The notes under the pieces were generated by a model that was not told where the DNA came from, did no database searches, and worked only from the letters and a program-made list of their open reading frames with translations. A stretch of DNA of 64,000 nucleotides from an uncultured Chloroflexia bacterium (GTDB lineage: Bacteria; Chloroflexota; Anaerolineae; Anaerolineales; UBA4823), in NCBI GenBank assembly GCA_963714425.1, contig CAVQOI010000005.1:19218-83217 (forward strand), written 5' to 3'. How positions within the stretch are numbered: position 1 is the first letter of the stretch; each line of letters opens with the position of its first letter. Of this stretch, positions 20,520 through 37,781 are shown in pieces. A program made the translations under genes and the position numbers.

Positions 20520-21287
20520 TTATTCGCTTAGATCTCCAGGCGTAAGGTAATTTATACTGCGATGAGGGCGGACTTGGGCTTCGACATCGTCTTTTAAGAC
20601 ATTCCCTGATACGTGCATGAGCGTGTCCCCAAAATCAATATCTTTTCCCATGCTTGCGAGACAGGGGTAGTGATGGTGCAATAGACCAGCTTTTTCGCTA
20701 GCCTCATCCACCGAAACCCCAACCAGCTTTTCTGCAACGTAACGAGCACAGCCACAAACAGCATCTCTTTGTACTTGCACGGAGCTGATAGTACGTGATT
20801 TCTCGTCTACTTCAATTTCTAGATGAGGTTGACCGAAGTAGGACGCGAATTCGGAAATGAGTGGGCTCAGGTAGGTGATTCGCTGGCGGCGGGTGACGCC
20901 ATAATCGGTTTCGGTGAGCGAACATAGCGGTTTAGGCGTCGCGCAGACGACCCCAATATTATCCAGCCATCCTCGCAGCTGGCGTGCAAGGCCGCGGGGC
21001 AGCCAGGCTTCATTATCTACAGAGGCAATTACAGCTTGTGCGCCCGTCATTTTGGCGATATCTGGGATAAGCTCAGCAACTCCACGGTGCTCAGCAAACG
21101 AGAGAATGAGATCACTCTCAGGCAGTTCGGAAGGGAGGTAATCTTCGGGATAATCGAGAATTAGTGGAAATGTGGCAGGCGCCCGCCAGGTAACGATCTC
21201 CCAGGAGGGGGGTGCATGTTTCCGGATATTGTCAGCGTGACGGACCCCGTAATCACCTGAGATAATTGCCAAGATGCGCATAGTCAA
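20520..21287 (-). CDS. DUF166 / COG1810-like uncharacterised protein
   Basis: 255 aa. From memory, MRILAIISGDYGVRHADNIRKH...PKPLCSL...CGCARYVAEKL...HHHYPCLASM resembles the mainly archaeal DUF166 family. Conserved Cys/His suggest metal binding. Confidence 0.45.
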   Translation of the reverse strand: MTMRILAIISGDYGVRHADNIRKHAPPSWEIVTWRAPATFPLILDYPEDYLPSELPESDLILSFAEHRGVAELIPDIAKMTGAQAVIASVDNEAWLPRGLARQLRGWLDNIGVVCATPKPLCSLTETDYGVTRRQRITYLSPLISEFASYFGQPHLEIEVDEKSRTISSVQVQRDAVCGCARYVAEKLVGVSVDEASEKAGLLHHHYPCLASMGKDIDFGDTLMHVSGNVLKDDVEAQVRPHRSINYLTPGDLSE

Positions 21288-22372
21288 ATCCTTTTGGCCA
21301 GAGATTTTTGCCGTTCAATTAAAATCGTAGTGATTACGATTCCCAGAAATAGCAGCACTGCAACGCCATTTACTAAGCCTCCCCAACGACGGAGTACCGC
21401 ATTTGTAGCCAGGTCGCCTGCCAGGCGCATGACCAGAGAGCTGTGTAGGAGAACCAAGGGAAAATAAAAATTATTGGTGAACCCTACTGGAAAACCCAGT
21501 ACTGCAGGAAAGATAATTGGCGCGTGACCGAAGATCATTGAGATGACAAACCCCACCAAAATGGAATGCAAAAAAGCATCGTACCCAAGCCCACCTGCCA
21601 TACCGCCCAGGGTAATCCCCAGCAGACCGCCAATCCCCAGCCAAATAAAACCGGAGAGCAAGCAATACGCTGCATAGCGTGGCAAGCCTGGCTGCCGGAT
21701 TGTTCGTCGGGAGATATCGTTCGCCAGAAACCAGGAAGCCAGAGCAATCAAACCCAGGCCGAATAATCGTGTCCCCAGTGAGTGGGTGATGGCAGCAATG
21801 AACAATCCTACAATCATGAGTGTGATGCAGAAGGTGAAAGCAAGATTGGTAAGGCGCGAGATGCGTTGTAACTTACCCAGCTCCAAACGCTCTCCAGCAA
21901 TGGTCAAAACGAGAAACGCAATCCACCACAAAACCACACGGGGAATTGACCAACCACTTAACCACAAGACATTACCGATAGCAAAAAATAGGGCACCGAG
22001 GGCCATCGTCAAGGTGTACGCTGCAAACTGCTTGCGAAGTATGACATAAAATATGCCCACTAAAAAGAAGCTCCCCGATGTCAGGAGGAGTATTCCCCCA
22101 GTCGAGGAGGTTGCAAAAATTATGAGCAATGCACCAAGGCCACTGAGCAAAGGACCAATATACATCCACGTTGCTCGAAGTGCAACAGCTCTTTCCAATC
22201 CGATCAGGGTGCCAAGGAAGCCAGCGACCATCAACGGACCATGAGATCCCGGTAGGGCGGGCAGCAAGGGAGGCCAGGTCCATCCAATACGGATCAAGCC
22301 CGCCCAGAGTGCAGCTAAAAATGAAAGTAAAGCCAGCGCAAGAAATGGTGCATTTGTTCGGTATCGCGGCAT
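21284..22372 (-). CDS. Polytopic membrane protein with conserved His (possibly NnrS-like)
   Basis: 362 aa with roughly 11-12 TM segments. His-containing TM motifs include SHGPLMVAGFLGTLIGLER and FLHSILVGFVISMIFGHAPIIFP. 4-nt ATGA overlap with the DUF166 gene. The family assignment is tentative. Confidence 0.35.
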   Translation of the reverse strand: MPRYRTNAPFLALALLSFLAALWAGLIRIGWTWPPLLPALPGSHGPLMVAGFLGTLIGLERAVALRATWMYIGPLLSGLGALLIIFATSSTGGILLLTSGSFFLVGIFYVILRKQFAAYTLTMALGALFFAIGNVLWLSGWSIPRVVLWWIAFLVLTIAGERLELGKLQRISRLTNLAFTFCITLMIVGLFIAAITHSLGTRLFGLGLIALASWFLANDISRRTIRQPGLPRYAAYCLLSGFIWLGIGGLLGITLGGMAGGLGYDAFLHSILVGFVISMIFGHAPIIFPAVLGFPVGFTNNFYFPLVLLHSSLVMRLAGDLATNAVLRRWGGLVNGVAVLLFLGIVITTILIERQKSLAKRI

Positions 22373-22378
22373 CTGACA

Positions 22379-22702
22379 TTAATCTTTGAACATTAGTAAA
22401 AGCATTTTTGTGGGGGATTTCGCATAGATGCTATGAGGCAGATTAGCTTGCATGTGAGCCCAGGCTCCGGGTCGTGCATCGAAGGTGTCATTTCCAAGGG
22501 TCACCTTCGACTCACCTTCCAGGATGTGGAGCATAGCAGGCACCGACGCTGTGTGTTCGGAGAGCTCCTGACCTGAATCAAAGGCAAACAAGATTACTTT
22601 AATCCGGTCGTCTGTGAATAGGGTGCGGCTGATGATACTATCACGCTGAATCTCATGGACCTGATCTTGTATTTCGGCGAAGTATTGGTACTCGGAGCTC
22701 AT
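22379..22702 (-). CDS. Cupin-2 domain protein
   Basis: GQELSEHTASVPAMLHILEGESKVTLG...ARPGAWAHMQANLPHSIYA is the two-motif cupin pattern. I prefer the start MSSEYQYF at 22702, which has an AAAGGAAAG RBS. Confidence 0.7.
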   Translation of the reverse strand: MSSEYQYFAEIQDQVHEIQRDSIISRTLFTDDRIKVILFAFDSGQELSEHTASVPAMLHILEGESKVTLGNDTFDARPGAWAHMQANLPHSIYAKSPTKMLLLMFKD

Positions 22703-22724
22703 AATCTTTCCTTTTCGTGAAAAT

Positions 22725-23063
22725 TTATTTTGATAAAAGCTCACGGGCTAACCAGTGAGCTTCAGCAATAAGGTCAGCATCGATGGGGAGCACGTGATCC
22801 GGAGTGATGCGAAGTATAAAGTGACCCATGATTTCCCTAGTCATCGGGGGGATTGTTGGTAGCTCAAGGAATGCTTTCATGTGCACATACGCACTCGGAT
22901 TTGAGAGTTCAACACCTTGTCGCATCAAATACTCCGCCACAATGATGCCAACTGCCCTCCGAGCACAAACGCGCGCCTTACCCTCATTTCCTTGACGCCG
23001 AGCACCTTCAGCCTGATTGATTTCGTGGGTAAAGCGCGAGTCCCAGGATTGCCTGGATGTCAT
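22725..23063 (-). CDS. Hypothetical helical protein with an R-x4-H motif near the C-terminus
   Basis: The track ORF runs to 23177, but I prefer Met39 (23063). A TACAAT box sits 6 nt upstream of it, and the divergent gene starts at 23101. The motif LRITPDH fits Rx4H (HEPN-like), which is weak evidence. Confidence 0.3.
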   Translation of the reverse strand: MTSRQSWDSRFTHEINQAEGARRQGNEGKARVCARRAVGIIVAEYLMRQGVELSNPSAYVHMKAFLELPTIPPMTREIMGHFILRITPDHVLPIDADLIAEAHWLARELLSK

Positions 23064-23100: not shown

Positions 23101-23325
23101 ATGGCACAAGATCTGCGCAAGTACGCGCGCCAGACTACCACGCGGCTCATCATAGGCGGGATTGCTCTGCTATTCATAATTGGGGACGGTTTAATATATT
23201 TTTTCTATGGAGAAGAGGCAGGGGCGATGGCGACACTATGCTTAATCGTGGGTTTGTCGCCCCTCGTGGTAATTTGGCTGGCACTTGAGGTGATTGGCTT
23301 GATTGCCCGCCGCGCGAACCGATGA
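23101..23325 (+). CDS. Small two-TM membrane protein
   Basis: 74 aa with two hydrophobic segments. ATGA overlap with the downstream esterase gene. Confidence 0.45.
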   Translation: MAQDLRKYARQTTTRLIIGGIALLFIIGDGLIYFFYGEEAGAMATLCLIVGLSPLVVIWLALEVIGLIARRANR

Positions 23326-23990
23326 ATGAACTCGGATCCGCAGAAAAGGTCCAAATTGGGGATTGGAATTTGCGTTTGCGTATCCCTGATGGTTCGGGGC
23401 CTTTTCCAGTAATCTTGATGCTTCATGGTTGGACAGGGGACGAAAACTCGATGTGGGTATTTGCCTCCCGTTTCCCCGAGAACGCAATGCTGATTGCCCC
23501 GCGCGGACCCTTTCCAACACCTCTCGGTGGATTCGGATGGCATGCTTACAAGGCGAAGATATGGCCCTGGCTGGATGAATTCCAGCCTGCCCTAAAAGCG
23601 CTTGATACTCTTCTAACGCCAGAGAACTTTCCGCAAGCGAATATTGGGCACTTGCATTTGGTTGGCTTTAGTCAGGGGGCGGCACTGGCCTTTTCGTTTT
23701 TACTGGAGAATGCCGGCAGAATCGCTTCCGTGGCAAGTTTGTCGGGTTTTTTGCCATACGGCGTGGATGCAATCGAAATCGATGAGTCTCTGGCTGGAAT
23801 TCCAATATTTATCGCACACGGCAGCGAGGACGATCTCGTGCCGGTTGACCGGGCGCGCGGTGCAGTGGCTTTCTTAGAAGCCGCGGGTGCCCGAGTAACC
23901 TATTGCGAGGATGAGGTAGGGCATAAACTCAGCACAAATTGCTTTCGGGGACTCGAATCCTTCTTTACAAAAGGTTTAGATCACTGGTAA
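23322..23990 (+). CDS. Alpha/beta hydrolase (phospholipase/carboxylesterase family)
   Basis: VILMLHGWTGDE, a nucleophile elbow GFSQGA, and HGSEDDLVP...H form a catalytic triad pattern. Confidence 0.7.
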   Translation: MNELGSAEKVQIGDWNLRLRIPDGSGPFPVILMLHGWTGDENSMWVFASRFPENAMLIAPRGPFPTPLGGFGWHAYKAKIWPWLDEFQPALKALDTLLTPENFPQANIGHLHLVGFSQGAALAFSFLLENAGRIASVASLSGFLPYGVDAIEIDESLAGIPIFIAHGSEDDLVPVDRARGAVAFLEAAGARVTYCEDEVGHKLSTNCFRGLESFFTKGLDHW

Positions 23991-25007
23991 CGGCTCTTCT
24001 ATGGAGCGCCCTGCGACATAACTGAATTCAAGAGCCAATTGCTGGCGGATGTGATTGAAAATTGCGCTGAGGGGTTGGTGTTGCGGGCACGATTGCTCAC
24101 ACATACCACAACCTGCACAAGAGATCATCCAGCGCATGACGTCTTGGGGCAAGAGCCGACCAAGAGAATCCCGTCTTGGCGTATCAACCGAGCATATTGG
24201 GCAGGCATCCAGGCAGGATTGGCAGCTCCCACAAGAGTACAACTGCTCGACAAGAGAATCAAGATCGGCTGGCATTACATCTGAGATGCCCTTGACCACT
24301 CTTTCTTGTGTGCGAGCCCTCCGTTCAGCCATTTGATCGAGCAGTTTCTGGCGCTGTTCGATGAGCTTATCCTCTGCTGGACCATCGGTGATTGTTTCCA
24401 GATGCAAACTCTCAGCAATGCTATCATCTGGAGTAAATACGAGCATATACTGGCGTACTGGCACGCCTAGCACACCGATATTGATGTCTGCATATTGGGC
24501 ACCAGGGAATATACACAACTGGCATGCTGAGCGGTAACGGTAAGCCATGATCCCGCCCTGGCGAGCGAATTGGAGGGTTTCATCGGTCAGTTCATCCGAA
24601 GAACCTTTTCGTTTTGAGCGCCAGGAGTACTCAGAAGACGGCAGAGTTCCCAAACAATCGATGCTGATCGTAAGCAAGCTTTTTAGCTGAATATCGGTGC
24701 GCTTTGCCATTTCGACGAGGGCGCGCAATTCGCAAGGGCGGAACATGGCAGCGTAAGAGGCTGATGATTCAGTAAGCAGATCAGGCACCAGTTTCGCCGC
24801 GTTAGTATTCATGATGGGTTTAAAGGGATTGACGGCGTCAAGCTGGGCTGGATTAACGATTAATTTGGGTTGTATGGAAGTTTCTGGCGAGCCGTTAATC
24901 GGCACCAACATTCCGTCTAGGCGGGACTGAAGCCAGACTGTGCGGATGAAATTGCGGAGCGTGTTTACGGGATCACCACGAGTATTCAACACCCAACTGG
25001 TAGACAT
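23976..25007 (-). CDS. FrhB/FdhB-like Fe-S protein with C-terminal 2x[4Fe-4S] ferredoxin motifs
   Basis: MFRPCELRALVEMAK...ISIDCLGT resembles the FrhB_FdhB C-terminal fold. The C-terminus has CGSCQSCLDACP and CAGCGMCEQSCP. It is the last gene of the Rieske/cyt b operon. Confidence 0.5.
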   Translation of the reverse strand: MSTSWVLNTRGDPVNTLRNFIRTVWLQSRLDGMLVPINGSPETSIQPKLIVNPAQLDAVNPFKPIMNTNAAKLVPDLLTESSASYAAMFRPCELRALVEMAKRTDIQLKSLLTISIDCLGTLPSSEYSWRSKRKGSSDELTDETLQFARQGGIMAYRYRSACQLCIFPGAQYADINIGVLGVPVRQYMLVFTPDDSIAESLHLETITDGPAEDKLIEQRQKLLDQMAERRARTQERVVKGISDVMPADLDSLVEQLYSCGSCQSCLDACPICSVDTPRRDSLGRLLPQDVMRWMISCAGCGMCEQSCPQHQPLSAIFNHIRQQLALEFSYVAGRSIEEPLPVI

Positions 25008-25037
25008 GACTGCCTCCTTTGCATTCCATTAAACCTA

Positions 25038-26969
25038 CTACGCACCTTGCTCCTGACCGGGCTCGAGCTGGTGGTCCAGTATTTCTGCGATGTCCAATAC
25101 CTGTACCTGCTCGCCTAAACCCTTGGAGCGAATGGCATCGTCAAACATGAGCAGGCAGTAAGGGCAAGCTGTAGCTATTGCATCCGCCTTAGCACTCAGC
25201 ACTTCATCTAAGCGACGATGATTGATGCGTGTCTCTGCATCCGTTTCCAACCACATCTGACCGCCCCCTCCGCCGCAACAAAAACTATTCTCCCCTTTAC
25301 GTGCGAGCTCTACTCGTTTGACCTTTGATTGATCGAGCAGCTGTCGGGGTTGGGCGTAAATATTGTTATAGCGCCCCAGGTAGCAGGAATCGTGGACAGC
25401 AAACCGGGCTTGTGCTCCATTGCCGTTAGCTGGGGACATCATGCCTGGCAGTTGCAATTCAGCTAAGAATTCGGTATAGTGTTGGACTTTGAAATTCCCG
25501 CCCATTTGCGGATATTCGTTCTTCAGCGTATTGAAGCAGTGTGGGCACTGGGTGACGATCCTATTGAACTTGATTTTTGAGAATACCTCAATGTTCTGTT
25601 CGGCGAAGGTCTGGAATAGATATTCATGTCCCATCCGCCTGGCAGTCTCTCCACAGCACATTTCATCAAAGCCAAGAATACCGAAATCAACACCAGCTTT
25701 GACCAGCAGGCGAGCAAACGATCGGGCAACTTTCTTATTGCGATCGTCGAAAGCGAAAGCGCATCCCAAGAAAAGCAGCACGTCCGTCTCGTCGCCTGGA
25801 GCTAATTCGCGTAATTCGAGCCCTTCCGCCCATGCTAGCCTGTCTTCTGGGGGCATCCCCCAGGGGTTGCCCTGACGCTCCATGTTTCGCAATGTGTCCG
25901 CGACCGATTTAGGTAGTTTTCCGGTTGTCAATGCCTGATAGCGGCGCAAATCGATGATGGCATCTACCGGGTTGACGAAGGCGGGGCACTTCACCAGACA
26001 GGCTCCACAGGTTGTGCACGACCAGGCGAAATCCTCCGGGAGAACCTCTCCTAAGATCTCACTGTCTGGGTGCCCATTAGGGCTGACCAAAGTATCGAGC
26101 ATGCCAGATCTGAGCGATTGGATCAGGTTTTTTGGGGTATATGCCATACCGCTGATGGTGGCGGGACAGGCCTCTTCACAGCGCCCACAGCGCACACAAG
26201 CATCGAAGGATAATAGCTGGATACTCTGGAATTCTGTGATCTTGCCCACACCCAGCTTCTCGGCATCATCAATATTTTCAATCTTGCTTAATGCACCCAA
26301 TTTTCTTCTCGGGTGAACGAGGATCTGTAGCGGTGTGAAAATTAGATGGCGCAGCTTGGTAAATGGGATGCTGGCAACCAAAGCCAAACCCAAGCCTATA
26401 TGGGAGTATAGAAAAACCGGGTGCAGACTGGCTGCCATTTCTGGTGTCATACCAAGGGTGCGTCCGAAGTGCGCAAGTGCGTTGCCAACCGGCGACCAGC
26501 TGGCCCAGGCAGGTGAGGTGGAAAGGAATCTGGCAGCTTCTGTGGCGAAGCCCACAAGCGGAAGAAGACCGAGTAGAGTGAGCGCGTAAGCATCATCCCA
26601 GCTATTTTCTAGCGTTTTCGGGCGTGCAATAAAGCGCCTGATAGCTGCCATGAAAACACCCAAAATTATGGCTACGCCAGCAATATCCATAATCAGCTCA
26701 TACCCAAGGTAGGCAGCGCCGCGTGGAAAAGGCAGCTCAACAAATGGGATAAAGAGCTGCATTTGCATCAAGTTGATGGCGGTTCCTAACACTTGAACGG
26801 TCACGCCCCAGAAGATAAAAGCATGCATGATGCCAGGGTAAATCTTCTTATAGAGGCGTACTTGACCGAGGGTATTGACGAAGAATTCTGATAAATACGG
26901 CTTGAGGGTTTCTAGCGATTTTCTTATATCCCATCTTCTAGGAGTCGTTGATAGCGTCTTTGTGGTCAT
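25038..26969 (-). CDS. Membrane-bound HdrD/DsrK-like Fe-S reductase (NarI-like TM domain, 2x[4Fe-4S], two CCG domains)
   Basis: N-terminal 5-6 TM region with conserved His (IMHAFIFWG, YSHIGLG, LRHLIF). Ferredoxin motifs CVRCGRCEEACP and CTTCGACLVKCP. CCG-type Cys motifs (LGCAFAFD...MCCG...CPHC and FCCGGGGG...CPYC). Confidence 0.75.
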   Translation of the reverse strand: MTTKTLSTTPRRWDIRKSLETLKPYLSEFFVNTLGQVRLYKKIYPGIMHAFIFWGVTVQVLGTAINLMQMQLFIPFVELPFPRGAAYLGYELIMDIAGVAIILGVFMAAIRRFIARPKTLENSWDDAYALTLLGLLPLVGFATEAARFLSTSPAWASWSPVGNALAHFGRTLGMTPEMAASLHPVFLYSHIGLGLALVASIPFTKLRHLIFTPLQILVHPRRKLGALSKIENIDDAEKLGVGKITEFQSIQLLSFDACVRCGRCEEACPATISGMAYTPKNLIQSLRSGMLDTLVSPNGHPDSEILGEVLPEDFAWSCTTCGACLVKCPAFVNPVDAIIDLRRYQALTTGKLPKSVADTLRNMERQGNPWGMPPEDRLAWAEGLELRELAPGDETDVLLFLGCAFAFDDRNKKVARSFARLLVKAGVDFGILGFDEMCCGETARRMGHEYLFQTFAEQNIEVFSKIKFNRIVTQCPHCFNTLKNEYPQMGGNFKVQHYTEFLAELQLPGMMSPANGNGAQARFAVHDSCYLGRYNNIYAQPRQLLDQSKVKRVELARKGENSFCCGGGGGQMWLETDAETRINHRRLDEVLSAKADAIATACPYCLLMFDDAIRSKGLGEQVQVLDIAEILDHQLEPGQEQGA

Positions 26970-27400
26970 GCCTCGCCTCCTACGTAGACCTCATCACCGG
27001 CCACCGATACAGCTAGTGGAGCTAGCGCCTTTGGAGGTGGACCTGAGATTACATGACCGTCCAAAGGATCAAAATATCCTTCATGGCATGGACATACGAT
27101 TTGAGATATTTCTGGATCCCATTTGCAGATGCAGGCGAAGTGCGTACATACTGCTGAATATGCTCGCAGACCCTCAGGGGTATTGACCACCAGGGCTGGA
27201 TAACGCCCAAAACGGACTGTCTTCGCCATCCCGACAGGAAGCTCTGAGACTTTGCTGACCAGCACCGGCTCTGATGGCATCTCCTCCAGATTGGGGGGGT
27301 AGAAGAAGGCAACCACGGGTCCAAATACCGCCGCCAGACCGGTGGCAGAGAGAGCTTTTTTGGCTAAGGAAAGAAATTCGCGGCGTGATATCTGGCTCAT
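26966..27400 (-). CDS. Rieske [2Fe-2S] protein with twin-arginine signal
   Basis: MSQISRREFLSL is a Tat motif. CTHFAC...CPCHEG is the Rieske CxH / CxxH pair. I prefer the start at 27400, which has a GGAGAGGTGA RBS. ATGA overlap with the downstream HdrD-like gene. Confidence 0.85.
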   Translation of the reverse strand: MSQISRREFLSLAKKALSATGLAAVFGPVVAFFYPPNLEEMPSEPVLVSKVSELPVGMAKTVRFGRYPALVVNTPEGLRAYSAVCTHFACICKWDPEISQIVCPCHEGYFDPLDGHVISGPPPKALAPLAVSVAGDEVYVGGEA

Positions 27401-27402
27401 GT

Positions 27403-27804
27403 CTAGCTCACCTCTCCCCAAATCGTTAATGCGATCAGCAGCACCATCCCAACAATGACAGCAATAAGCCGTGTCGTGTAGATTTTTTTGGATGTGTCCG
27501 GCTTACGGTCAAAGAAAGGCCAAAGCGCAATGATTCCGACCCCAATTACGGGTAATACTGCACCAATAGTTTTTGGGATGTATTTCAACAGCTGGTATAG
27601 AGCCAGGAAATACCATTCCGGTTTAACATGAGCGGGAGTGTCCATTGGGTCGGCGGGGTCGCCCAAACCGATCGGGACGAAGAAACCCAGGATTGCTATG
27701 GCAACTATCACGAAGGTAACGCCCAACACAACCCGGAATTCGGTGCGTACGTGATCAGGGTAGAAAGGAATAGATTCTTCTTCGGTCGCGTGGAGTTCAG
27801 CCAT
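27403..27804 (-). CDS. Cytochrome b C-terminal domain (b6f subunit IV-like)
   Basis: 133 aa with three TM segments and the PEWYFLALYQLLKYIP motif. Confidence 0.8.
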   Translation of the reverse strand: MAELHATEEESIPFYPDHVRTEFRVVLGVTFVIVAIAILGFFVPIGLGDPADPMDTPAHVKPEWYFLALYQLLKYIPKTIGAVLPVIGVGIIALWPFFDRKPDTSKKIYTTRLIAVIVGMVLLIALTIWGEVS

Positions 27805-27828
27805 TAATATCTCCTAGAATTTTAGCGC

Positions 27829-28833
27829 TCACAGCGGTTTAGCAACACCTTGACGGCGCACCATCAAGAAATGGGATCCCATAAAGACCAGGGTCATGAT
27901 CGGGATGACGATGACATGCAGACTGTAGAACCGGCTCAGAGTCAAGGCACCCACATCCCAACCCACACGCAGGAAAACAAGCGATAAGTTGCCAATCACT
28001 GGGATTGCTCCGGCGATCTCTGTACCCACCGTGGTTGCCCAAAATGCACGCTGGTCCCAGGGGAGCAGGTAGCCAGTGAAACCGAAGCCCAGGGTCAATA
28101 TAAGCAGGATCACACCACTCACCCAATTAAGCTCCCGAGGAGCCTTGAACGCCCCCATGACAAAGACTCGCAGCATGTGGGCAGTGCACATGACAATCAT
28201 GCCATTAGCTGCCCAATGGTGGATAGCCCGGATGGCAGCCCCAAAGCGCACCTGTGTCTCAATAAAGAGGATGCTTGCGTAAGCAGCCTCAGGTGTGGGT
28301 TTGTAGTAAAAAGCCAGCATGATACCGGTGATAGCCTGGACGACAAAAAGGAATGCGGTAATGCCTCCCAGACAGTACCACCAGCGTAAGGCAAATGTCG
28401 GGACTGGCTTGTTCAGAACTTTGGAAAGCGGATCACGGATGGAGTAGCGTTCATCGACCCACTCGAAGGCACGGAGCTGGAGCGGTTTCCAGGGAGCGCG
28501 GGTGACCCAGGCGCTGGCGCTGCGATAAACTCCCATTACGAACACCAGCCCGACCATTCCGAAGAACGTCCACCGCACCAGTGGTGTCCAGAGACCTTTA
28601 TTCTCTCCGCTGATATGGCAGTGCAAGCACGGGTCTCTTTCCGGCGGCGGGATTGTGGCAGCGGCACTCGGGTCATGAGATACATTCTGAACGATTGACC
28701 AGGCTGGTATGGAGGGGTCTGGCGCGGTCGCCATCGCCTTGCCATGGGCGTTCATGAAGATTGCCCCAGCAAGCCCAAGGACAAGCAAAACAGTGAAGGA
28801 TAGTAGGAGGATGCGCGGGGAACGATTTGTCAT
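27829..28833 (-). CDS. Cytochrome b (b6-like N-terminal domain) with an N-terminal extension carrying a c-type haem motif
   Basis: Cyt b core (WWYCLGGITAFLFVVQAITGIMLAFYY, AIHHWAANGM, GYLLPWDQRAFWATTV, SLHVIVIP). The N-terminal TM helix is followed by CLHCH (CxxCH). Confidence 0.8.
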   Translation of the reverse strand: MTNRSPRILLLSFTVLLVLGLAGAIFMNAHGKAMATAPDPSIPAWSIVQNVSHDPSAAATIPPPERDPCLHCHISGENKGLWTPLVRWTFFGMVGLVFVMGVYRSASAWVTRAPWKPLQLRAFEWVDERYSIRDPLSKVLNKPVPTFALRWWYCLGGITAFLFVVQAITGIMLAFYYKPTPEAAYASILFIETQVRFGAAIRAIHHWAANGMIVMCTAHMLRVFVMGAFKAPRELNWVSGVILLILTLGFGFTGYLLPWDQRAFWATTVGTEIAGAIPVIGNLSLVFLRVGWDVGALTLSRFYSLHVIVIPIMTLVFMGSHFLMVRRQGVAKPL

Positions 28834-29092
28834 GGGCGACTACCTCAATGAATCTGAGCGTTTTTGCAAGTTTTTGTTTGATTCTTATCATAAGGATACT
28901 GGATTTGCACACTGCATGTAAACCCCTGATGGTCTGAACTTATCTCAGGTGCGCGACCTAATTCCATCCACTATGGACCCTAGAAGGCATTGGGGTTATT
29001 TACCCAACGGCAAATAATTACGCTCGTTCATAGTTGTCTGCATTCTATGGTCAGCATATCCAACCTCTCTACAGATTTTGGACCAGGAAGTG

Positions 29093-29139
29093 AAATAAAA
29101 AGTGGGAAATCCGGTCGTATTGCGACCGGATTTCCCACT
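29093..29139 (-). terminator. Strong intrinsic terminator after the response-regulator gene
   Basis: Perfect 17-bp inverted repeat AGTGGGAAATCCGGTCG / CGACCGGATTTCCCACT (29101-29139) with a 5-nt loop. UUUUUAUUU follows on the minus strand. Confidence 0.75.
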
Positions 29140-29173
29140 CTAATTTTAGTTATTCAGCCAGCTATTTGATTAA

Positions 29174-29821
29174 TCAGATCTCGATGATTTTCTTCTGGAT
29201 GGCGTATTTGATCAGGTCGCCACGGTCATGAAGGTCCAATTTGCTCATCAGGTTAGTGCGGTGAGATTGGACCGTCTTGACCGAGATCGTGAGGATGCCG
29301 GCTATCTGTTTGGTGGTGTAGCCTTCCGCGATCAATTGTAAGACTTCATGCTCCCTCGGAGTGAGCCCATCATCAACCTGAGGTTGCAGTTCGCCCCATC
29401 GCAGATAGTCCTCAATAACCATGCGCGTGATGGCGGGCGATAAGACTGCCTCTCCACGATTGACTGTACGGATGGCGCCGATCAGATCGCGCGCAGCAGC
29501 ATCTTTGAGGATATAACCCATAGCTCCACAGGCTAACACCTGGCGGATATATTCTTCGTTTTCGTGCATGGTGAGGATGAGCACCCTGGTTTGGGGATTA
29601 TCGCGCTTGATCTGGCGGGTAGCTTGAAGTCCATTCAACACTGGCATAGCGATATCCATGAGAACAACATCTGGCTCAAGTTGCGAGACCATCTGCACAG
29701 CTATACGACCATCGTCTGCCTCACCCACAACAACCATATCACTCTCACTCTCAAGGAGTGAGCGGATACCATCCCGCAGGATTGTGTGGTCGTCGGCGAT
29801 CAAAATGCGAATCTTTTGCAC
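29174..29821 (-). CDS. NarL/FixJ-family response regulator (REC + LuxR HTH)
   Basis: ILIADDH...DVVLMDIAMP...K in the receiver domain. The C-terminus has LTPREHEVLQLIAEGYTTKQIAGILTISVKTVQSHRTNLMSKL. Confidence 0.85.
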   Translation of the reverse strand: MQKIRILIADDHTILRDGIRSLLESESDMVVVGEADDGRIAVQMVSQLEPDVVLMDIAMPVLNGLQATRQIKRDNPQTRVLILTMHENEEYIRQVLACGAMGYILKDAAARDLIGAIRTVNRGEAVLSPAITRMVIEDYLRWGELQPQVDDGLTPREHEVLQLIAEGYTTKQIAGILTISVKTVQSHRTNLMSKLDLHDRGDLIKYAIQKKIIEI

Positions 29822-29822
29822 G

Positions 29823-30878
29823 TTAGGCTACCTCGCCATTAATCACGGGCATAGTGACCTCGAGGGAAGTTCCCCGTCCGGGTTTTGAGTCCAATCTCAC
29901 ATTGCCACCAACCAGCTCAGCGCGTTCGATAATTCCAACAAGCCCCCACTGCTGCAAACGAACGGCACACGACGAGATTTGTTCCGTATTGAAGCCATGT
30001 CCATCGTCTTCAATGTGCAACCGAATGATATCATCACCTCTTTCCAGAGAGATTTTAGCACTACCAGCATTCGAATGTCTGACGATGTTGGTGACTGCTT
30101 CCTGTGCAATACGAAAGAGTGTGGTTTTGATCTCCTGGGAGAGCTGAGCAAATTCATCGGTGGCATTAAAATCAACACGAATGCCTGCTTCTTCTAATGA
30201 ATTGCGCGCATACCAACGGATTGCAGGTACGAGACCGAGGTCATCGAGAATGGTCGGGCGCAGATCGTGTATGGTCTTGCGCAAATCGCTCAAAGTCACT
30301 TGCGCTATATTGCGTGTATTGGTGAGCTTCTCTCGAATTCCCGAATCCTCTGGGGTCAGCTGATTTTCGAGGTGCTCGAGGTTGATAATCAGCATGCTCA
30401 ACGCTTGTCCTGTGTCGTCATGAAGGCTGCGGGCGATGCGTTTGCGTTCTTCCTCATGCGCATTAATGGCACGTTCTGATAGGTGTCGCAGCTGCCGGTT
30501 TTGGGCCTCAAGCTCAATGACCAATGTGTTGAGACCCGCGGCGATCTGGCTTATGTCTGGCGCTGCAGCCTGTAAGAATTCTGGTGGGATGTAGGTCTCG
30601 CCAGTATGGATTTTTTCAACCGCATTGGACAAGTCGATTAGGGGACGAAGTGCGAGTTTTATCAACCAATAGTTGAGAGTGATCGAAAGCAGCGTACCAA
30701 TGGTGGCAAAGAGGGCGATCAAGCTGATATCTGCAGCCTGGTCGGTCAGCAAGCGAGTCAGCAATGTCCCGCCAATTGCGCCTATAACGATGATTATCGA
30801 ATTACCGATGGCAATTTGCTTGAAGAGGGGTTGGCGGATAAATGGGCGCCGCAGGAAATCGAACAGGGATGAGCGCAT
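29823..30878 (-). CDS. Sensor histidine kinase (2 TM, HAMP, HisKA_3, HATPase_c)
   Basis: H-box ERKRIARSLHDDTGQAL (NarX/DegS type). ATPase N/G boxes (EAVTNIVRHSNA, DDGHGF, GLVGIIERAELVGG). Confidence 0.8.
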   Translation of the reverse strand: MRSSLFDFLRRPFIRQPLFKQIAIGNSIIIVIGAIGGTLLTRLLTDQAADISLIALFATIGTLLSITLNYWLIKLALRPLIDLSNAVEKIHTGETYIPPEFLQAAAPDISQIAAGLNTLVIELEAQNRQLRHLSERAINAHEEERKRIARSLHDDTGQALSMLIINLEHLENQLTPEDSGIREKLTNTRNIAQVTLSDLRKTIHDLRPTILDDLGLVPAIRWYARNSLEEAGIRVDFNATDEFAQLSQEIKTTLFRIAQEAVTNIVRHSNAGSAKISLERGDDIIRLHIEDDGHGFNTEQISSCAVRLQQWGLVGIIERAELVGGNVRLDSKPGRGTSLEVTMPVINGEVA

Positions 30879-31112: not shown

Positions 31113-31967
31113 CTATAGGAAACTTTCTAATAAAGAACCTACCTCAGCCATAGAAAATACAGGACCATCTACACAAACCAGTTTCTCACCCAGGTTGCAG
31201 CGACCGCATTTTCCGATGCCACAATGCATGCGCGCTTCAAGAGTTACATAGTTCTGGTCAGGTGTGAAGCCGAGCTTCTCAACGAGGATCTTGTTCACAA
31301 AGTGAATCATGATGGGCGGGCCGCAAGTAATCGTGATTGCGTTCTCTGGTACGGGTGCGACTCGATCCAGCAAATCCGTAATCAGGCCGACGTGATGGTC
31401 CCAATGGGAATCGGGGACATCTACGGTGAGATGCAATTGGGTGTCGGGAGCAGAGCGCCAGCTTTGGTACTCGTCAGTAAAAACCAGCAAGGAGGGGTGT
31501 CTTGCTGCCCAAAGGATCGTCAGGTGGCCGTAGTCCTGGCGGTTATTCAAGACATGTTGAATAACCGGGCGCAAGGGTGCCCCGCCTATCCCACCACCGA
31601 GGACGACCAGATCTTTGCCTTTAAAATCCTCCATGGGGAACCAATTCCCAAGAGGACCACGCACACCTATGATATCGCCAACACCCAGCTCGTGCATCTC
31701 TGTTGTAACCGATCCCAGGCGTTGAACGGCAAACTCCAGGGGACCACCATTTGGAGCAGAGGCAAAACCAAAAGCTGCCTCACCCACGCCAAATGCAGAT
31801 ACGAACGCGAACTGCCCAGGTTTATAGGAGCGAAAATGCTCGCTCCCTCCGTTTAGCATTTGCACTCCAAAGAGCTTGATCTCGGACCCAAGGTCTCTGG
31901 TGAAAACGAGTTTACCCAGGTAGGGCTTCATCGGATTATCGTGGTTATTTTCCGTATCTCGCGTCAT
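31113..31967 (-). CDS. FAD/NAD(P)-binding oxidoreductase with C-terminal [2Fe-2S] (FlxA / HydG / AsrB-like)
   Basis: Ferredoxin-reductase-type fold (PGQFAFVS, GPLG, VVLGGGIGGAPL). C-terminal CGIGKCGRCNLGEKLVCVDGPVF. Confidence 0.7.
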   Translation of the reverse strand: MTRDTENNHDNPMKPYLGKLVFTRDLGSEIKLFGVQMLNGGSEHFRSYKPGQFAFVSAFGVGEAAFGFASAPNGGPLEFAVQRLGSVTTEMHELGVGDIIGVRGPLGNWFPMEDFKGKDLVVLGGGIGGAPLRPVIQHVLNNRQDYGHLTILWAARHPSLLVFTDEYQSWRSAPDTQLHLTVDVPDSHWDHHVGLITDLLDRVAPVPENAITITCGPPIMIHFVNKILVEKLGFTPDQNYVTLEARMHCGIGKCGRCNLGEKLVCVDGPVFSMAEVGSLLESFL

Positions 31968-32971
31968 GAGGCCACCTCCGCCATGTCAGCAAGCACTTCT
32001 CCAATATCGATATTGACAGGGCACATCTCAATACAGCGTCCACAGCCGGTACATGCCATTGGACCGTACTGCTCTGCATAGTAGTGAAACTTACACATAA
32101 AGCGATTACGCAGACGTTGGCTTGTGGAGGCGCGTGGGTTATGACCCCCAGCAATCCGACGATAGGAGGGACTGGTGCAAGTATCCCAACAGCGAATGCG
32201 CTCGTATTCGGATTTACCGTCACCACCCGTTAGCGCTTCATCGCGCACGATGAAACACCTGCAGGTAGGACATACATAACCACATATGCGGCAGCTCAGA
32301 CATCGCTCTGCCAAACGCTCCCAGTAAGCATCCGTGAAACGCGCAGACCAGCTTATCGTCTGGGGAGATGGGATCTTGGATAGATCCCGCCTATCGATGA
32401 TGGGTGGTACAACCACCTCGCCAGTAACTGGTTTGAGGCGATCTGATAGGAGCTGGTTGCCTTTTTCAGTCACAATTTGGGCGAGGTAACCTCCATCAGT
32501 TTCGGTAAGCATGATGTCCATGTCCTGAGGATCATCTGGAAACCCTCCAACACTGGTACAAAAGCAGGTTTCGCCCATCTCGCGGCATGCGAGGCCAATC
32601 AGGGTTGTATTTTCCCGACGCTTGGCATAGTACGGATCAGATGGCTCCATCAGGAACATCTCATCCAGGATCTTCATCCCCCTGGCGTCACATGGGCGGA
32701 CACCAAAGATGACGACCTCACCTTCAGGCAAGGTCTCGGTAAGCTGAAGCTCTTGCCCGTTTATGTGGATATGTAGCAGCGCCTCCGTTGCAGGGAAGAA
32801 CACTTCTTTTATGGATAGTGCAGGGCGCGAAAACTTCCAGGCGATTTCCGACGTGGTTCCCACCTGGCGGTAACGAAGGACACCTTCATCCCGGGTGGGA
32901 GCAACAAGATTCGATTCTTGTGCTAAGTTATCGAGTATTGCGGAGAGATCTGCTTGGGATAGGAACTTCAT
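31964..32971 (-). CDS. 4Fe-4S dicluster protein (FlxB/C, HydB, AsrA-like)
   Basis: CLSCRICGYVCPTCRCF and CTGCGRCIEMCPVNI. 4-nt overlaps with both neighbours. Confidence 0.65.
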   Translation of the reverse strand: MKFLSQADLSAILDNLAQESNLVAPTRDEGVLRYRQVGTTSEIAWKFSRPALSIKEVFFPATEALLHIHINGQELQLTETLPEGEVVIFGVRPCDARGMKILDEMFLMEPSDPYYAKRRENTTLIGLACREMGETCFCTSVGGFPDDPQDMDIMLTETDGGYLAQIVTEKGNQLLSDRLKPVTGEVVVPPIIDRRDLSKIPSPQTISWSARFTDAYWERLAERCLSCRICGYVCPTCRCFIVRDEALTGGDGKSEYERIRCWDTCTSPSYRRIAGGHNPRASTSQRLRNRFMCKFHYYAEQYGPMACTGCGRCIEMCPVNIDIGEVLADMAEVAS

Positions 32972-34329
32972 GGCAGCTGCTCCTCTCCGTTCAGGATTGT
33001 GACGAATGGTGATGGGACTGGCTCCAGACCGGCACGGTGCCCGAATACTGTCTGCATCTCCTGGATGAGTTTCCCGTTGAGCAAGCTAATCGGGATCTCC
33101 ATCGGACACACACGCTCGCACTCGTGGCAATCCACGCAACGACCAGCCAGATGATATGCTCTTCCCAGGTGGAAGGTGCGTTTCTCATTTGCATTGATGC
33201 CCATGCCTACCCAGAGAGAGTCATCTCGCTCGTACAAGCAGGTGGGGCAGGCACACATCGGACAGACCTGGCGACAAGCATAGCAGCGGATACATCGATC
33301 GAACTGCGACAGCCAATATTCCATACGCTCTGGAGCTGACTTAGCATCCAGCTCGGAAAGCCGCGGGGGAATCACAAGCTGAGGATGCACTTCTGGGGCA
33401 TCGCCGACCAGGGTGTCGTATACAATGGGTATACGCTGATCACATTCCTGGCATCGCTCCTGGAGACTGCAATTGTCGCTGTTCACTTCTCGCATCCCCT
33501 GGCAGGCCACTCCAATCACATGAACCTGACCCCGCTCAAACCGATTTTCAGCGAGCAACACGTTTATCGCCCGGCTGTCACACGGTTTTGCCACGATGGC
33601 GATGGGTTTTTTGGGTTCTGATCCTGCCTTTGTCCCCGGAGGGTAGAGGGTCGAGTGCAGGTAAGTCGTCAGGTTATGGGAGCAGTCCTGGTTCCAAACT
33701 AGGCGCTGGACCTCTGCCGGATTGCGGACAAACGCTGGGCGTGTGCGCCCATGCGTACCAGACTCATAGCCTATTACAACGCTCACTTCGCCTGTGGAAA
33801 GCAACTGGCGCGCTGTATCCTGGATCAACACGGCCACATGGGATTCATCAGGAGGCGCAACCAGTCTGGCTGTCGAAGTCTCTGTATTGAAATTAGTTCT
33901 TACTGGATCGTGGTCTCGCTGGCTTAATCTCCATTTCACTGGTCCAAGTGAACGCACCTTGTCTGTGAACTCGTTTACGATGCGACTGAAGCGCTCACCT
34001 TCAGAAGCGGAAACGTAATCGAGCCGCAGCCTTTCGGGCTCCAGCCCGGTAAAAGCCATGAGCGATTGGAGAATTGGCAGGCGCTTGGCTGTGCGATGAT
34101 TGCCAGTGTCATAATGGCATTCACCGACGTGGCAGGCGAGGACAAGCACACCATCTGCCCCTTGGTCAAAGGTACGCATGATTATCTCGGGAGCGACACG
34201 TCCAGAACAGGGGACGCGCACAGCACGCACATTTGCTGGAGATTTCAGCCGAGCGATACCAGCTGTATCAGCGCCTGTATAGCTACACCAGGTACATAGA
34301 AATGCAATGATCTTAGGTTCGTATGGCAT
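32968..34329 (-). CDS. MvhD/FlxD-domain protein fused to an Fe-S (2x[4Fe-4S]) module
   Basis: The N-terminus KIIAFLCTWCSYTGADTAG...VRVPCSGRVAPEIIMRTF..GADGVLVLACHVGECHY is an MvhD/FlpD domain. The C-terminus has CIRCYACRQVCPMCACPTC and CVDCHECERVCP. Confidence 0.7.
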   Translation of the reverse strand: MPYEPKIIAFLCTWCSYTGADTAGIARLKSPANVRAVRVPCSGRVAPEIIMRTFDQGADGVLVLACHVGECHYDTGNHRTAKRLPILQSLMAFTGLEPERLRLDYVSASEGERFSRIVNEFTDKVRSLGPVKWRLSQRDHDPVRTNFNTETSTARLVAPPDESHVAVLIQDTARQLLSTGEVSVVIGYESGTHGRTRPAFVRNPAEVQRLVWNQDCSHNLTTYLHSTLYPPGTKAGSEPKKPIAIVAKPCDSRAINVLLAENRFERGQVHVIGVACQGMREVNSDNCSLQERCQECDQRIPIVYDTLVGDAPEVHPQLVIPPRLSELDAKSAPERMEYWLSQFDRCIRCYACRQVCPMCACPTCLYERDDSLWVGMGINANEKRTFHLGRAYHLAGRCVDCHECERVCPMEIPISLLNGKLIQEMQTVFGHRAGLEPVPSPFVTILNGEEQLP

Positions 34330-34340
34330 TCCACGACCTC

Positions 34341-37300: not shown

Positions 37301-37781
37301 GGGCAGCCTCGATCCCAGCAATGCCTCCACCAACCACTAGAGTAGATGGGAGCATGTCAACATTGCGCTGCTCCAGCGGCTCGTGATAGCGTACTCGCCG
37401 GACAGCAGCTTCGACCAAACTCATGGCTTTATTGGTCGCCATATCCCGGTCGTCGATCACCCAGGAGCAATGCTCACGGATATTTGCCATCTGGAAGAAG
37501 AAAGGATTGAGTCCGCCTTCCATGCAGGCTTTTCTAAAGGTCGGCTCATGCATCAACGGGGTGCAAGAAGCCACCACAACCCGGTTCAAACCGTACTCAC
37601 GAATATCCTCTTTGATCAGATCCTGGCCCGGATCGGAGCACATATAGGTGTAATCTTTAGCTAGAATGACACCATCCAGAGTCCGGGCGTGGTCAGCGAC
37701 CGACTTCACGTCCACCGTGGCGGCAATATTGGTGCCGCAATGACAGACGTACACGCCGGTTCTGATTTTGGAGAGGTTCAT
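34341..37781 (-). CDS. hdrA: HdrA-like flavoprotein with in-frame UGA (predicted Sec198) and an inserted GltD/NfnB-like NAD(P)H module; read-through product 1146 aa
   Basis: Track ORFs 37188..37781 and 34341..37172 are in the same frame, separated only by TGA (37188-37190): TLDCAA-TGA-ILTPKMVSVGRHENI. The N-terminus has VVGGGIAGIEAAL (FAD). An insert at about 35460-36930 has CRSACP...CGRVCNHHCEDMC plus IIGAGPAGLTAA and VVLGGGNVALD, which is GltD-like. Confidence 0.7.
37153..37171 (-). promoter_or_regulatory. Candidate bacterial SECIS hairpin for the long hdrA
   Basis: The minus strand reads U GGUGUCC GUU GGACGCC A, an 8-bp stem with a 3-nt G-containing loop, starting 16 nt after the UGA. Confidence 0.5.

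Follow-up and report, generated by a model that had tools for sequence, protein, structure and literature searches.

The window, a stretch of 64,000 nucleotides from an uncultured Chloroflexia bacterium (contig CAVQOI010000005.1), contains five consecutive genes on its minus strand, at 23976–28833, that encode a Rieske/cytochrome b module and two further redox proteins. The genes are, in sequential order, a b6-type cytochrome b (27829–28833, 334 aa; PF00033 Cytochrome_B, E 1.7e-51), a PetD-like subunit IV (27403–27804, 133 aa; PF00032 Cytochrom_B_C, 3.2e-16), a Rieske [2Fe-2S] protein (26966–27400 from its ATG, 144 aa; PF00355, 3.8e-11; an alternative TTG start is at 27421), an EMO/EtfD-like protein (25038–26969, 643 aa; PF02665, a 4Fe-4S dicluster, and two PF02754 CCG domains), and an FdhB/ElpB-like Fe-S protein (23976–25007, 343 aa; a weak PF04432 match and a 2×[4Fe-4S] ferredoxin domain). 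The junctions, read directly, measure 24 nt, 2 nt, −4 nt, and 30 nt. The negative value is an ATGA start/stop overlap (26966–26969, minus strand) between the Rieske gene and the gene of the 643-aa protein. An earlier note made from the sequence had described these genes, domains, and spacings; they are confirmed to the base, and Pfam and NCBIfam confirm each domain that it named.

Upstream, the unit is bounded by a strong intrinsic terminator that follows a response-regulator gene (29099–29141, minus strand). Its hairpin is a near-perfect 19-bp stem with 10 GC pairs and a T-rich tail, is readable in both orientations, and lies between the regulator gene and the promoter region of cytochrome b. 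A terminator scan found none between the five genes; its single match in the whole unit, a weak stem of 6 bp, falls in the cytochrome b gene (28328–28314). Given the upstream terminator, the lack of an internal intergenic one, and a convergent esterase gene at the 3′ end, the five genes constitute a self-contained unit. The intergenic region (28834–29098, minus strand) contains two candidate promoter sites, 29071–29042 and 28922–28893, each matching the sigma-70-like consensus at 9 of 12 positions, which hints weakly that the operon has a promoter of its own in this region.

Relatives were collected with an alignment of the 343-aa protein as query, in a scan that included a single genome for each species. 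The scan yielded 164 relatives, and the best 80, all from metagenome-assembled genomes (MAGs) of Chloroflexota/Anaerolineae and mostly of Anaerolineales, were examined. Gene content and order at these 80 loci, numbered L001 onward, were determined by tblastn with the proteins of the window. Neighbouring genes were annotated one by one in L001 and L002, and recurrent neighbour families were counted over the 66 complete loci. Conservation counts rest mostly on these 66 loci or on 65 ortholog sequences. Domains were called with Pfam and NCBIfam, and structures were compared by PDB sequence search, AF2 models, and Foldseek.

The earlier note had proposed a conserved gene unit and had named an order shared by no relative as grounds for doubting it. 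The proposal is borne out, with all five genes present in the same order at 66 of the 80 loci. Of the 14 others, 12 are broken by a contig end, and two (L036 and L067) truly have none of the other four genes nearby. The 4-nt overlap between the Rieske gene and the gene of the 643-aa protein is present and in frame at 63 of the 66 loci. Protein identity to the window ranges over 42–82% overall, from 42–55% for the last gene to 64–82% for cytochrome b, so the related genomes are not near-duplicates. The 643-aa and 343-aa proteins also have hundreds of relatives at 50–72% identity in Chloroflexota/Anaerolineae metagenome bins. A chance arrangement or a mis-annotation is ruled out by the exact coordinates together with the conservation across loci. 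Gene content, cofactor motifs, homologies, gene order, and the overlap are shared across 60 or more species.

The Rieske/cytochrome b6 module

Cytochrome b is split into a four-helix b6 (PF00033) and a three-helix subunit IV (PF00032). Residues 121–334 of the former align with cytochrome b6 of b6f complexes (E 1e-63). The haem ligands H205/H219 and H306/H321 pair with histidines of b6 and have the same 14- and 15-residue spacing as in the aligned b6. The sequence YCLGG (residues 153–157) contains the CxGG cysteine for covalent attachment of haem cn, and subunit IV carries PEWY at residues 62–65 (both motifs as defined in PMC5600118). The Rieske protein possesses a twin-arginine translocation (Tat) motif, RREF (6–9), the cluster motifs CTHFAC (85–90) and CPCH (103–106), and a transmembrane (TM) anchor, and matches the NCBIfam b6f iron-sulfur subunit with an E value of 3.4e-16. 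As judged from its sequence, the b6-type features of the module are complete.

The first ~120 residues of cytochrome b form an N-terminal extension (28474–28833, minus strand) that matches no Pfam domain, no NCBIfam family, and no PDB chain. The conservation profile of 65 sequences reveals that it is sequentially composed of a hydrophobic signal or anchor helix ending in an AxA-like site, a variable linker, a haem-c block, and an extra TM helix. The conserved block reads PPPxxDxCLxCHIxGxxKxxWTPLxRW and includes CLHCH (residues 69–73; 28615–28629, minus strand), a CxxCH c-type haem motif that is invariant, with C69, C72, and H73 each 100% conserved in 65/65 sequences. Counted by locus, CxxCH is present in 64 of 66; one exception is broken by a contig end and the other has a divergent cytochrome b. 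The same 65 sequences contain no invariant His or Met within the extension that could serve as the sixth ligand of haem c, and H30 is present in only 58%.

In b6f, the N terminus of b6 is established to be on the n-side. As one helix separates it from the CxxCH motif, the motif is predicted to face the periplasm, next to the Rieske cluster. The complex thus most likely carries its own monohaem c on the extension of cytochrome b, in place of cytochrome f or c1. No separate gene for a c-type cytochrome (cytochrome f, c1, a dihaem c, or a c domain fused to subunit IV) was found in the operon, in L001 and L002, or among the recurrent neighbours of the 66 loci. The earlier note, which saw a second redox module here instead of a c-type cytochrome, was wrong on this point, given the invariant CxxCH on the extension. 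The motif would supply the electron exit that is required of a quinol:cytochrome c reductase. Anaerolineae are expected to need such an enzyme, since many of their MAGs encode and transcribe cytochrome c oxidases (PMC11748557).

The EMO/EtfD-like protein and its FdhB/ElpB-like partner

The 643-aa protein consists of a NarI-type five-TM haem-b domain (26295–26969, minus strand; PF02665, 3.7e-08) and a cytoplasmic Fe-S part (25038–26294, minus strand; PF02754, 8.5e-34, in two stretches). Its top match in the PDB sequence search is Mycobacterium smegmatis EtfD (9ojn_A), over the full length and with an E value of 9.2e-102; HdrB chains are far behind. The AF2 model is weak (pLDDT 63), and its top Foldseek match, again 9ojn (E 2.4e-23), is supportive only. 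In the EtfD/EMO family, one polypeptide contains a haem-b domain of the NarI type, an HdrC-like domain that binds two cubane clusters, and an HdrB-like domain for the noncubane clusters (PMC13083937; preprint 10.64898/2026.08.18.745454). The best NCBIfam matches are all below their cut-offs, at 36 of 400 bits for DsrK, 52 of 750 for HmcF, 48 of 735 for TmcB, and 41 of 345 for HdrB. The HdrD-like/DsrMK label of the earlier note was thus right about the NarI-like domain, the 2×[4Fe-4S] motifs, and the two CCG domains, but the protein fits better in the EMO/EtfD family.

The Fe-S part contains two cubane [4Fe-4S] motifs (C258–C269 and C318–C329) and two complete CCG motifs for noncubane clusters (C403/C438/C439/C475/C478 and C529/C564/C565/C602/C605). 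Both five-Cys motifs, of the pattern CX(31–39)CCX(35–36)CXXC, are intact in 65/65 orthologs. In the membrane domain, H49 and H208 align with H78 and H241 of M. smegmatis EtfD and are assigned as ligands of the proximal haem. H190, located 18 residues ahead of H208, corresponds to the distal haem ligand. All three residues are invariant (ligand roles in EMO according to PMC13083937 and preprint 10.64898/2026.08.18.745454). An extra invariant histidine, H183, precedes H190 by seven residues and is not among the three family-wide His of EMO; it could be a second ligand of the distal haem or a proton donor at the quinone site. The resulting pattern, H-x6-H-x17-H, is present in 64/65 orthologs.

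In both characterised members of the EMO/EtfD family, the electron donor is a flavoprotein of the cytoplasm and the acceptor is (methyl)menaquinone (PMC13083937; preprint 10.64898/2026.08.18.745454). The mycobacterial EtfD wires ETF to menaquinone via one proximal haem (PMC13083937). In the Syntrophus EMO, the proton-motive force drives the reduction of methylmenaquinone at the periplasmic side, via a distal twin haem of low potential (preprint 10.64898/2026.08.18.745454). Since the characterised members reduce menaquinone with electrons of ETF, assignment of the 643-aa protein to this family makes possible an electron flow opposite to that of DsrMK and HdrDE.

The strong homology to EtfD also suits a simpler explanation, in which the 643-aa protein is an ordinary ETF:menaquinone oxidoreductase served by EtfAB from another locus and the FdhB-like protein plays a minor accessory part. 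The two genes would then adjoin those of complex III just because all of them are induced together for respiration, with no particular link in function or in space. A two-component regulator is conserved upstream, co-transcription of respiratory genes is common, and a translational overlap by itself is no proof of interaction. However, five related genomes contain near the cluster a separate EtfD-type paralog of ~690–700 aa (L043 471–2564, L048 909–3008, L058 1553–3676, L061 7412–9400, and L080 10885–12960), ~35% identical to the window protein. The first CCG motif of this paralog is degenerate (CTG), as in M. smegmatis EtfD, where the window protein has CCG; no etfAB gene is adjacent to it at the five loci. 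Because the two coexist in the same genomes, the Rieske-linked protein is a distinct, specialised lineage of the family. In addition, no etfAB or acyl-CoA dehydrogenase gene is found within 8 kb in L001 and L002, none is among the gene families that recur next to the cluster over the 66 loci, and the gene order and the 4-nt overlap persist down to 42–60% identity, which is unusual for a loose association. We regard this explanation as quite unlikely and favour a specialised EMO/EtfD-type protein that would work with the FdhB-like protein encoded next to it.

That partner, the 343-aa protein, is related to FdhB and ElpB. A profile of its family matches, near full length, the FdhB chains 9t1s_M (5e-38) and 7bkb_E (9e-33) and the ElpB chain 8rvu_E (2e-32). 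The AF2 model is confident (pLDDT 87, pTM 0.89) and retrieves in Foldseek 7bkb_E (TMq 0.76) and 8rvu_E (0.72), followed by FrhB, Fsr, and HCAR. PF04432 (FrhB_FdhB_C) is matched by the window protein at 1.7e-4 and 21.9 bits, below the 23.3-bit cut-off, and by 39 of 65 family members at E ≤ 0.01. Twelve cysteines are conserved in the family, enough for three [4Fe-4S] clusters; C92, C118, C162, and C165 belong to the FrhB-type cluster, and the ferredoxin domain contributes those of C259–C269 and C297–C307. The earlier note called the protein FrhB-like; it is closest to FdhB/ElpB in both profile and fold, and its N-domain has diverged and is not recognisable as that of FrhB. FdhB and ElpB contain FAD and four [4Fe-4S] clusters and feed electrons of F420H2 into Hdr (PMC12350162).

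Distant paralogs of the FdhB-like protein in Anaerolineales (~30% identity) are not linked to Rieske genes. They adjoin CCG and HdrA-like proteins together with an acyl-CoA dehydrogenase, or else a HisKA_3/NarL pair. Their recurrence beside CCG-domain proteins suggests a general partnership between FdhB-like and CCG proteins. L083 (1–10694) and L084 (1–10784) each contain two such paralogs along with a soluble Fer4+CCG (HdrD-like) protein and an HdrA-like flavoprotein. Small ferredoxins, an acyl-CoA dehydrogenase, and an FAD_binding_2 protein are also encoded there, and the cluster has the look of an Hdr-like complex of the cytoplasm with a tie to the oxidation of acyl-CoA.

Proposed electron flow and surrounding genes

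The five genes can be read, tentatively, as a conserved respiratory operon of Anaerolineae with two linked modules, which we consider a reasonable though far from settled account. Module 1 would be a b6c-type menaquinol-oxidising complex, composed of a b6 with haems bL, bH, and cn, subunit IV, and a Tat-exported Rieske protein, with a c haem on the b6 extension. Module 2 would consist of the EMO/EtfD-family protein, with its haem-b domain, two cubane clusters, and two noncubane clusters, and the FdhB/ElpB-like partner with three predicted [4Fe-4S] clusters. The FdhB-like subunit would take electrons from a cytoplasmic reductant, candidates being a hydride carrier of the F420H2 type or another kind, ferredoxin, or a docked dehydrogenase. 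From this subunit, as from ETF in the characterised EMOs, the electrons would enter the EMO-like protein at its noncubane clusters and proceed through the cubane clusters and the haem(s) b to menaquinone. The resulting menaquinol would next give up its electrons at Qo in the co-translated Rieske/b6 module. One electron would pass from the Rieske cluster to haem c and on to a periplasmic carrier or terminal oxidase, and the other would travel via bL, bH, and cn in a Q cycle. The direction of flow, the donor, and contact of the modules as opposed to shared regulation or a shared quinone pool are the parts of this scheme that we infer.

The overlap between the Rieske and EMO-like genes suggests translational coupling, and its retention argues for a fixed stoichiometry of the two modules, possibly in a supercomplex. 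That the five products act as one complex is suggested by the genetic arrangement, and physical contact between the modules is a prediction.

Several points weigh against the proposed scheme. Overlapping start and stop codons are also known from gene pairs with non-interacting products. At L036 (210–3211) and L067 (6069–8999), the FdhB-like gene comes immediately after those of the kinase and the regulator; cytochrome b, Rieske, and EMO-like genes were not found within either locus. In L067, the genes downstream of the FdhB-like gene encode a methyltransferase, plsX, and fabF. No conserved catalytic partner (FdhA-like) or ETF is present among the recurrent neighbours of the 66 loci, where only the response regulator, the histidine kinase, and the E2 and E3 components of 2-oxoacid dehydrogenase recur. 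The menaquinone-site Phe residues of M. smegmatis EtfD are replaced by Val and Leu in the aligned window protein. PF04422 (FrhB_FdhB_N) is not matched at E ≤ 10 by any of five FdhB-like proteins tested, and where FdhB has its GG and GS motifs, which we take to be part of the flavin site, the aligned sequences read invariant GDP and PFxP. With the N-domain signature lost and the GG/GS positions replaced, a flavin or F420 site in the FdhB-like protein is doubtful. Finally, complete CCG motifs are a trait of true heterodisulfide reductases, and the distal site is degenerate in both characterised EMOs. The intact motifs thus leave room for a catalytic thiol/disulfide site and for the opposite direction, from quinol to the cytoplasm, as in HdrDE and DsrMK. 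Together, the complete motifs and the doubtful flavin site keep other readings in play.

One of these takes the 643-aa protein as an HdrDE/DsrMK-type enzyme that would use menaquinol to reduce a disulfide or trisulfide of the cytoplasm at its noncubane clusters, or else would oxidise a dithiol such as dihydrolipoamide to reduce menaquinone, with the FdhB-like protein as an accessory wire and the Rieske/b6 genes sharing regulation only. Both CX(n)CCX(n)CXXC motifs resemble those of catalytic HdrB and HdrD, the weak best matches in NCBIfam are thiol-linked enzymes (TfrB at 3.9e-47, HmcF, TmcB, and DsrK), and E2/E3 genes, with their lipoamide dithiol chemistry, lie just upstream in 25–27 of the 66 loci. 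However, every one of these NCBIfam matches is far under its cut-off, and the E2/E3 genes, which the window lacks at this place, may adjoin the cluster in relatives through common descent alone. No gene for DsrC, CoM/CoB, or another thiol carrier is found in the operon of the window or among the recurrent neighbours, the closest relative of solved structure, EtfD, is an electron wire and not a disulfide reductase, and the invariant FdhB-like partner would be left unexplained. We judge this reading decidedly improbable.

The tightly kept coupling of the Rieske and EMO-like genes also fits quinol bifurcation of the anammox kind. The high-potential electron from Qo would go to the Rieske cluster and haem c, and the low-potential one, instead of reducing quinone at Qi, would pass from bH/cn to the haem b of the EMO-like protein, along the Fe-S chain, and through the FdhB-like protein to NAD(P)+, F420, ferredoxin, or a disulfide. 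Anammox bacteria express Rieske/b6 complexes whose operons also encode Fe-S/NAD(P) oxidoreductase subunits of the cytoplasm (PMC5600118), the full Hdr-type CCG motifs suit the membrane-to-cytoplasm direction of HdrDE (preprint 10.64898/2026.08.18.745454), and a haem-b membrane domain would be a natural in-membrane adaptor beside cytochrome b6. On the other hand, Pfam and NCBIfam reveal in the operon neither an NAD(P)-binding domain nor another that would evidently form a product, and the doubts about the flavin site apply here as well. The cn cysteine is kept, suggesting a working Qi site. Anaerolineae, moreover, are mostly organotrophs with no obvious need of a quinol-driven low-potential reductant. 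This scheme seems fairly unlikely. Also unlikely, to a slightly greater degree, is the more far-reaching proposition that all five proteins form one membrane supercomplex, in which the Qo site is joined electronically through the EMO-like haem-b domain to an Hdr-type noncubane site and quinone bifurcation, or its reverse, is coupled to a cytoplasmic low-potential or thiol couple. Electron entry through the FdhB-like and EMO-like proteins into menaquinone, followed by menaquinol oxidation in the Rieske/b6 module, remains the account that we prefer.

Upstream of the five genes, the window contains genes for a NarL/LuxR-type response regulator (29174–29821, minus strand; PF00072, 4.7e-32; PF00196, 1.3e-20) and a HisKA_3 sensor histidine kinase with two N-terminal TM helices (29823–30878, minus strand; PF07730, 1.9e-15; PF02518, 3.3e-13). 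A NarL-type regulator is located directly upstream of cytochrome b at 43 of the 66 loci, including L001 and L002, and a homolog of the kinase just upstream of the cluster at 22. The kinase is likely a regulator of the operon. Co-transcription of the two-component genes with the operon was considered and is unlikely, given the 19-bp-stem terminator after the regulator gene.

Genes for 2-oxoacid dehydrogenase components, absent from the window, lie directly next to the regulator and the cluster in a number of relatives: E2 lipoyl-acyltransferase at 25 of 66 loci, E3 dihydrolipoamide dehydrogenase at 27, and E1 at eight. Examples are L001 (1–3067 and 11202–12599), L024 (1683–3080), and L028 (309–1601). 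These neighbours could reflect synteny by descent or hint at a lipoamide (dithiol) link to the CCG protein.

At the other end of the unit, the convergent gene (23322–23990, plus strand) encodes an Abhydrolase_2 esterase and overlaps the 3′ end of the FdhB-like gene by 15 nt; a convergent esterase is likewise present in eight related loci. Downstream of the esterase is a tight set of three genes (20520–22744, minus strand) for a DUF166 protein, a 362-aa polytopic membrane protein without a Pfam match, and a small cupin.

A further redox cluster lies upstream of the kinase gene. Two tandem HdrA-like genes (34341–39820, minus strand) contain in-frame TGA codons at 39185–39187 and 37188–37190, both within the identical motif FPTLDCAA*ILTPKMVSVGRHENI. 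Because TGA falls at the Cys/Sec position of HdrA, it probably encodes selenocysteine. The second HdrA-like gene is fused to a GltD-like pyridine-nucleotide oxidoreductase part. The genes downstream (31113–34329, minus strand) encode an MvhD (FlpD) domain fused to an Fe-S C-terminal part like the ferredoxin domain of FdhB, a Fer4_22 protein, and an NAD_binding_1/DHODB_Fe-S protein. Together, the genes at 31113–39820 constitute a soluble Hdr/Mvh-like electron-transfer cluster. This block of ~9 kb lies between the kinase gene and cysS in the window and is absent from that position in L002, where cysS directly abuts the kinase gene. The idea that the five genes are part of this HdrA(Sec)/MvhD/Fer4_22/NAD-binding cluster was rejected, as L001 and L002 keep the regulator and the five genes without the block.

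Comparison with known systems

Rieske/cytochrome b complexes are central proton-motive engines of respiration and photosynthesis. In nearly all textbook versions, to our knowledge, a periplasmic cytochrome c or plastocyanin is the sole recipient of the electrons. Anammox bacteria have shown that additional redox arms on the cytoplasmic side are possible, and the role of these complexes is a matter of debate. Members of Anaerolineae abound in soils, sediments, digesters, and wastewater, and little is known of their energy metabolism.

Each part of the present unit belongs to a known family, and the concept of a redox arm on the cytoplasmic side of a Rieske/b6 complex has precedents in anammox bacteria and in cytochrome b "subfamily G". 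What appears to be new is the combination of b6c, EMO/Hdr-like, and FdhB-like proteins, its strict conservation in Anaerolineae, and the haem-c extension on cytochrome b6; the operon may be a new kind of respiratory machine. The earlier note knew of no characterised complex of this composition. Full-text literature searches likewise found no description of it, with an earlier mention in Dibrova 2013 BBA being possible. The two 2026 papers on EMO/EtfD mention neither Rieske, Chloroflexi, nor FdhB (PMC13083937; preprint 10.64898/2026.08.18.745454), and a cytochrome bc survey does not mention Chloroflexi (PMC5600118).

In Anaerolineae, at least 66 species have a b6-type complex that is genetically tied to a second, unrelated kind of cytoplasmic arm, and the haem-c-bearing extension of b6 would be a previously unclassified answer to a missing cytochrome c1 or f. 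If the two modules work together, they define an electron entry to and exit from the menaquinone pool in Anaerolineae, extend the function of the EMO/EtfD family beyond ETF, and offer a natural system for testing Qo-site bifurcation coupled to Hdr-type chemistry. A single supercomplex, if true, would represent a new class of energy-converting respiratory complex outside anammox, with a cytochrome b that carries its own c haem.

The b6f and b6c complexes of Firmicutes and Heliobacteria (PetB/PetD/PetC) share with the present module the split cytochrome b, the four His ligands, CxGG, PEWY, and a Tat-exported Rieske protein with CTHxxC and CPCH. However, the operon described here has no gene for cytochrome f, c1, or a dihaem c, carries a single CxxCH on a novel extension of b6, and continues with two cytoplasm-facing redox proteins.

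The 643-aa protein resembles the EMO/EtfD proteins of M. smegmatis (9OJN) and Syntrophus aciditrophicus in being a single chain of five-TM NarI-like, HdrC-like, and HdrB-like domains with the three family-wide His. The proteins differ in their CCG motifs, which are both complete here, whereas M. smegmatis EtfD has a 4-Cys linear [3Fe-4S] site and the S. aciditrophicus EMO is one Cys short. The gene here is unlinked to etfAB, is preceded by the Rieske gene with an overlap, and is always followed by the FdhB-like gene. The protein also lacks the ~265-residue disordered C-terminal tail of M. smegmatis EtfD, in addition to its menaquinone-site Phe. HdrDE, DsrMK, HmeCD, and TmcBC/HmcEF likewise combine a NarI-like dihaem membrane module with two cubane and two full noncubane motifs on the cytoplasmic side. 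In contrast to these, the protein here is one fused chain, scores far below the NCBIfam cut-offs, has no thiol-carrier or substrate gene nearby, and is accompanied by an extra FdhB-like partner.

FdhB and ElpB, known from the Fdh-Hdr-Fmd and Elp-Hdr supercomplexes, have the same overall fold as the 343-aa protein, an FrhB-type domain followed by a 2×[4Fe-4S] ferredoxin domain, and their genes also lie beside those of Hdr-type CCG proteins (PMC12350162). The 343-aa protein differs in having 12 Cys, for three clusters instead of four, in the absence of a PF04422 signal, and in GDP/PFxP at the GG/GS positions; no FdhA/ElpA or MvhD is encoded in its operon.

Nar1 (NarGHI) of Streptomyces coelicolor, an enzyme with a membrane subunit of the NarI family, is a precedent for a functional and physical tie to a Rieske/cytochrome b complex, since it is reported to depend on the bcc-aa3 supercomplex and to co-purify with it, and not to act as a free quinol oxidase (PMC7931247). 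Nar1 is different in being a molybdoenzyme nitrate reductase module from another phylum, without operon fusion.

Another parallel is with the anammox bacteria Kuenenia and Brocadia and the "subfamily G" operons, which encode large NAD(P)/Fe-S oxidoreductase subunits. The partners here are of other families, EMO/EtfD-type and FdhB-like, and Pfam and NCBIfam find no NAD(P)-binding flavoprotein, multihaem c, or HAO-like subunit among the five proteins. The host is a member of Chloroflexota, the group that goes unmentioned in the bc survey. In both cases, a short b6-type cytochrome b and a Rieske protein are encoded with cytoplasmic Fe-S oxidoreductase subunits (PMC5600118). The analogy with anammox that the earlier note had drawn is therefore apt, as Rieske/cytochrome b complexes with cytoplasmic Fe-S/flavin subunits are a known precedent (PMC5600118).

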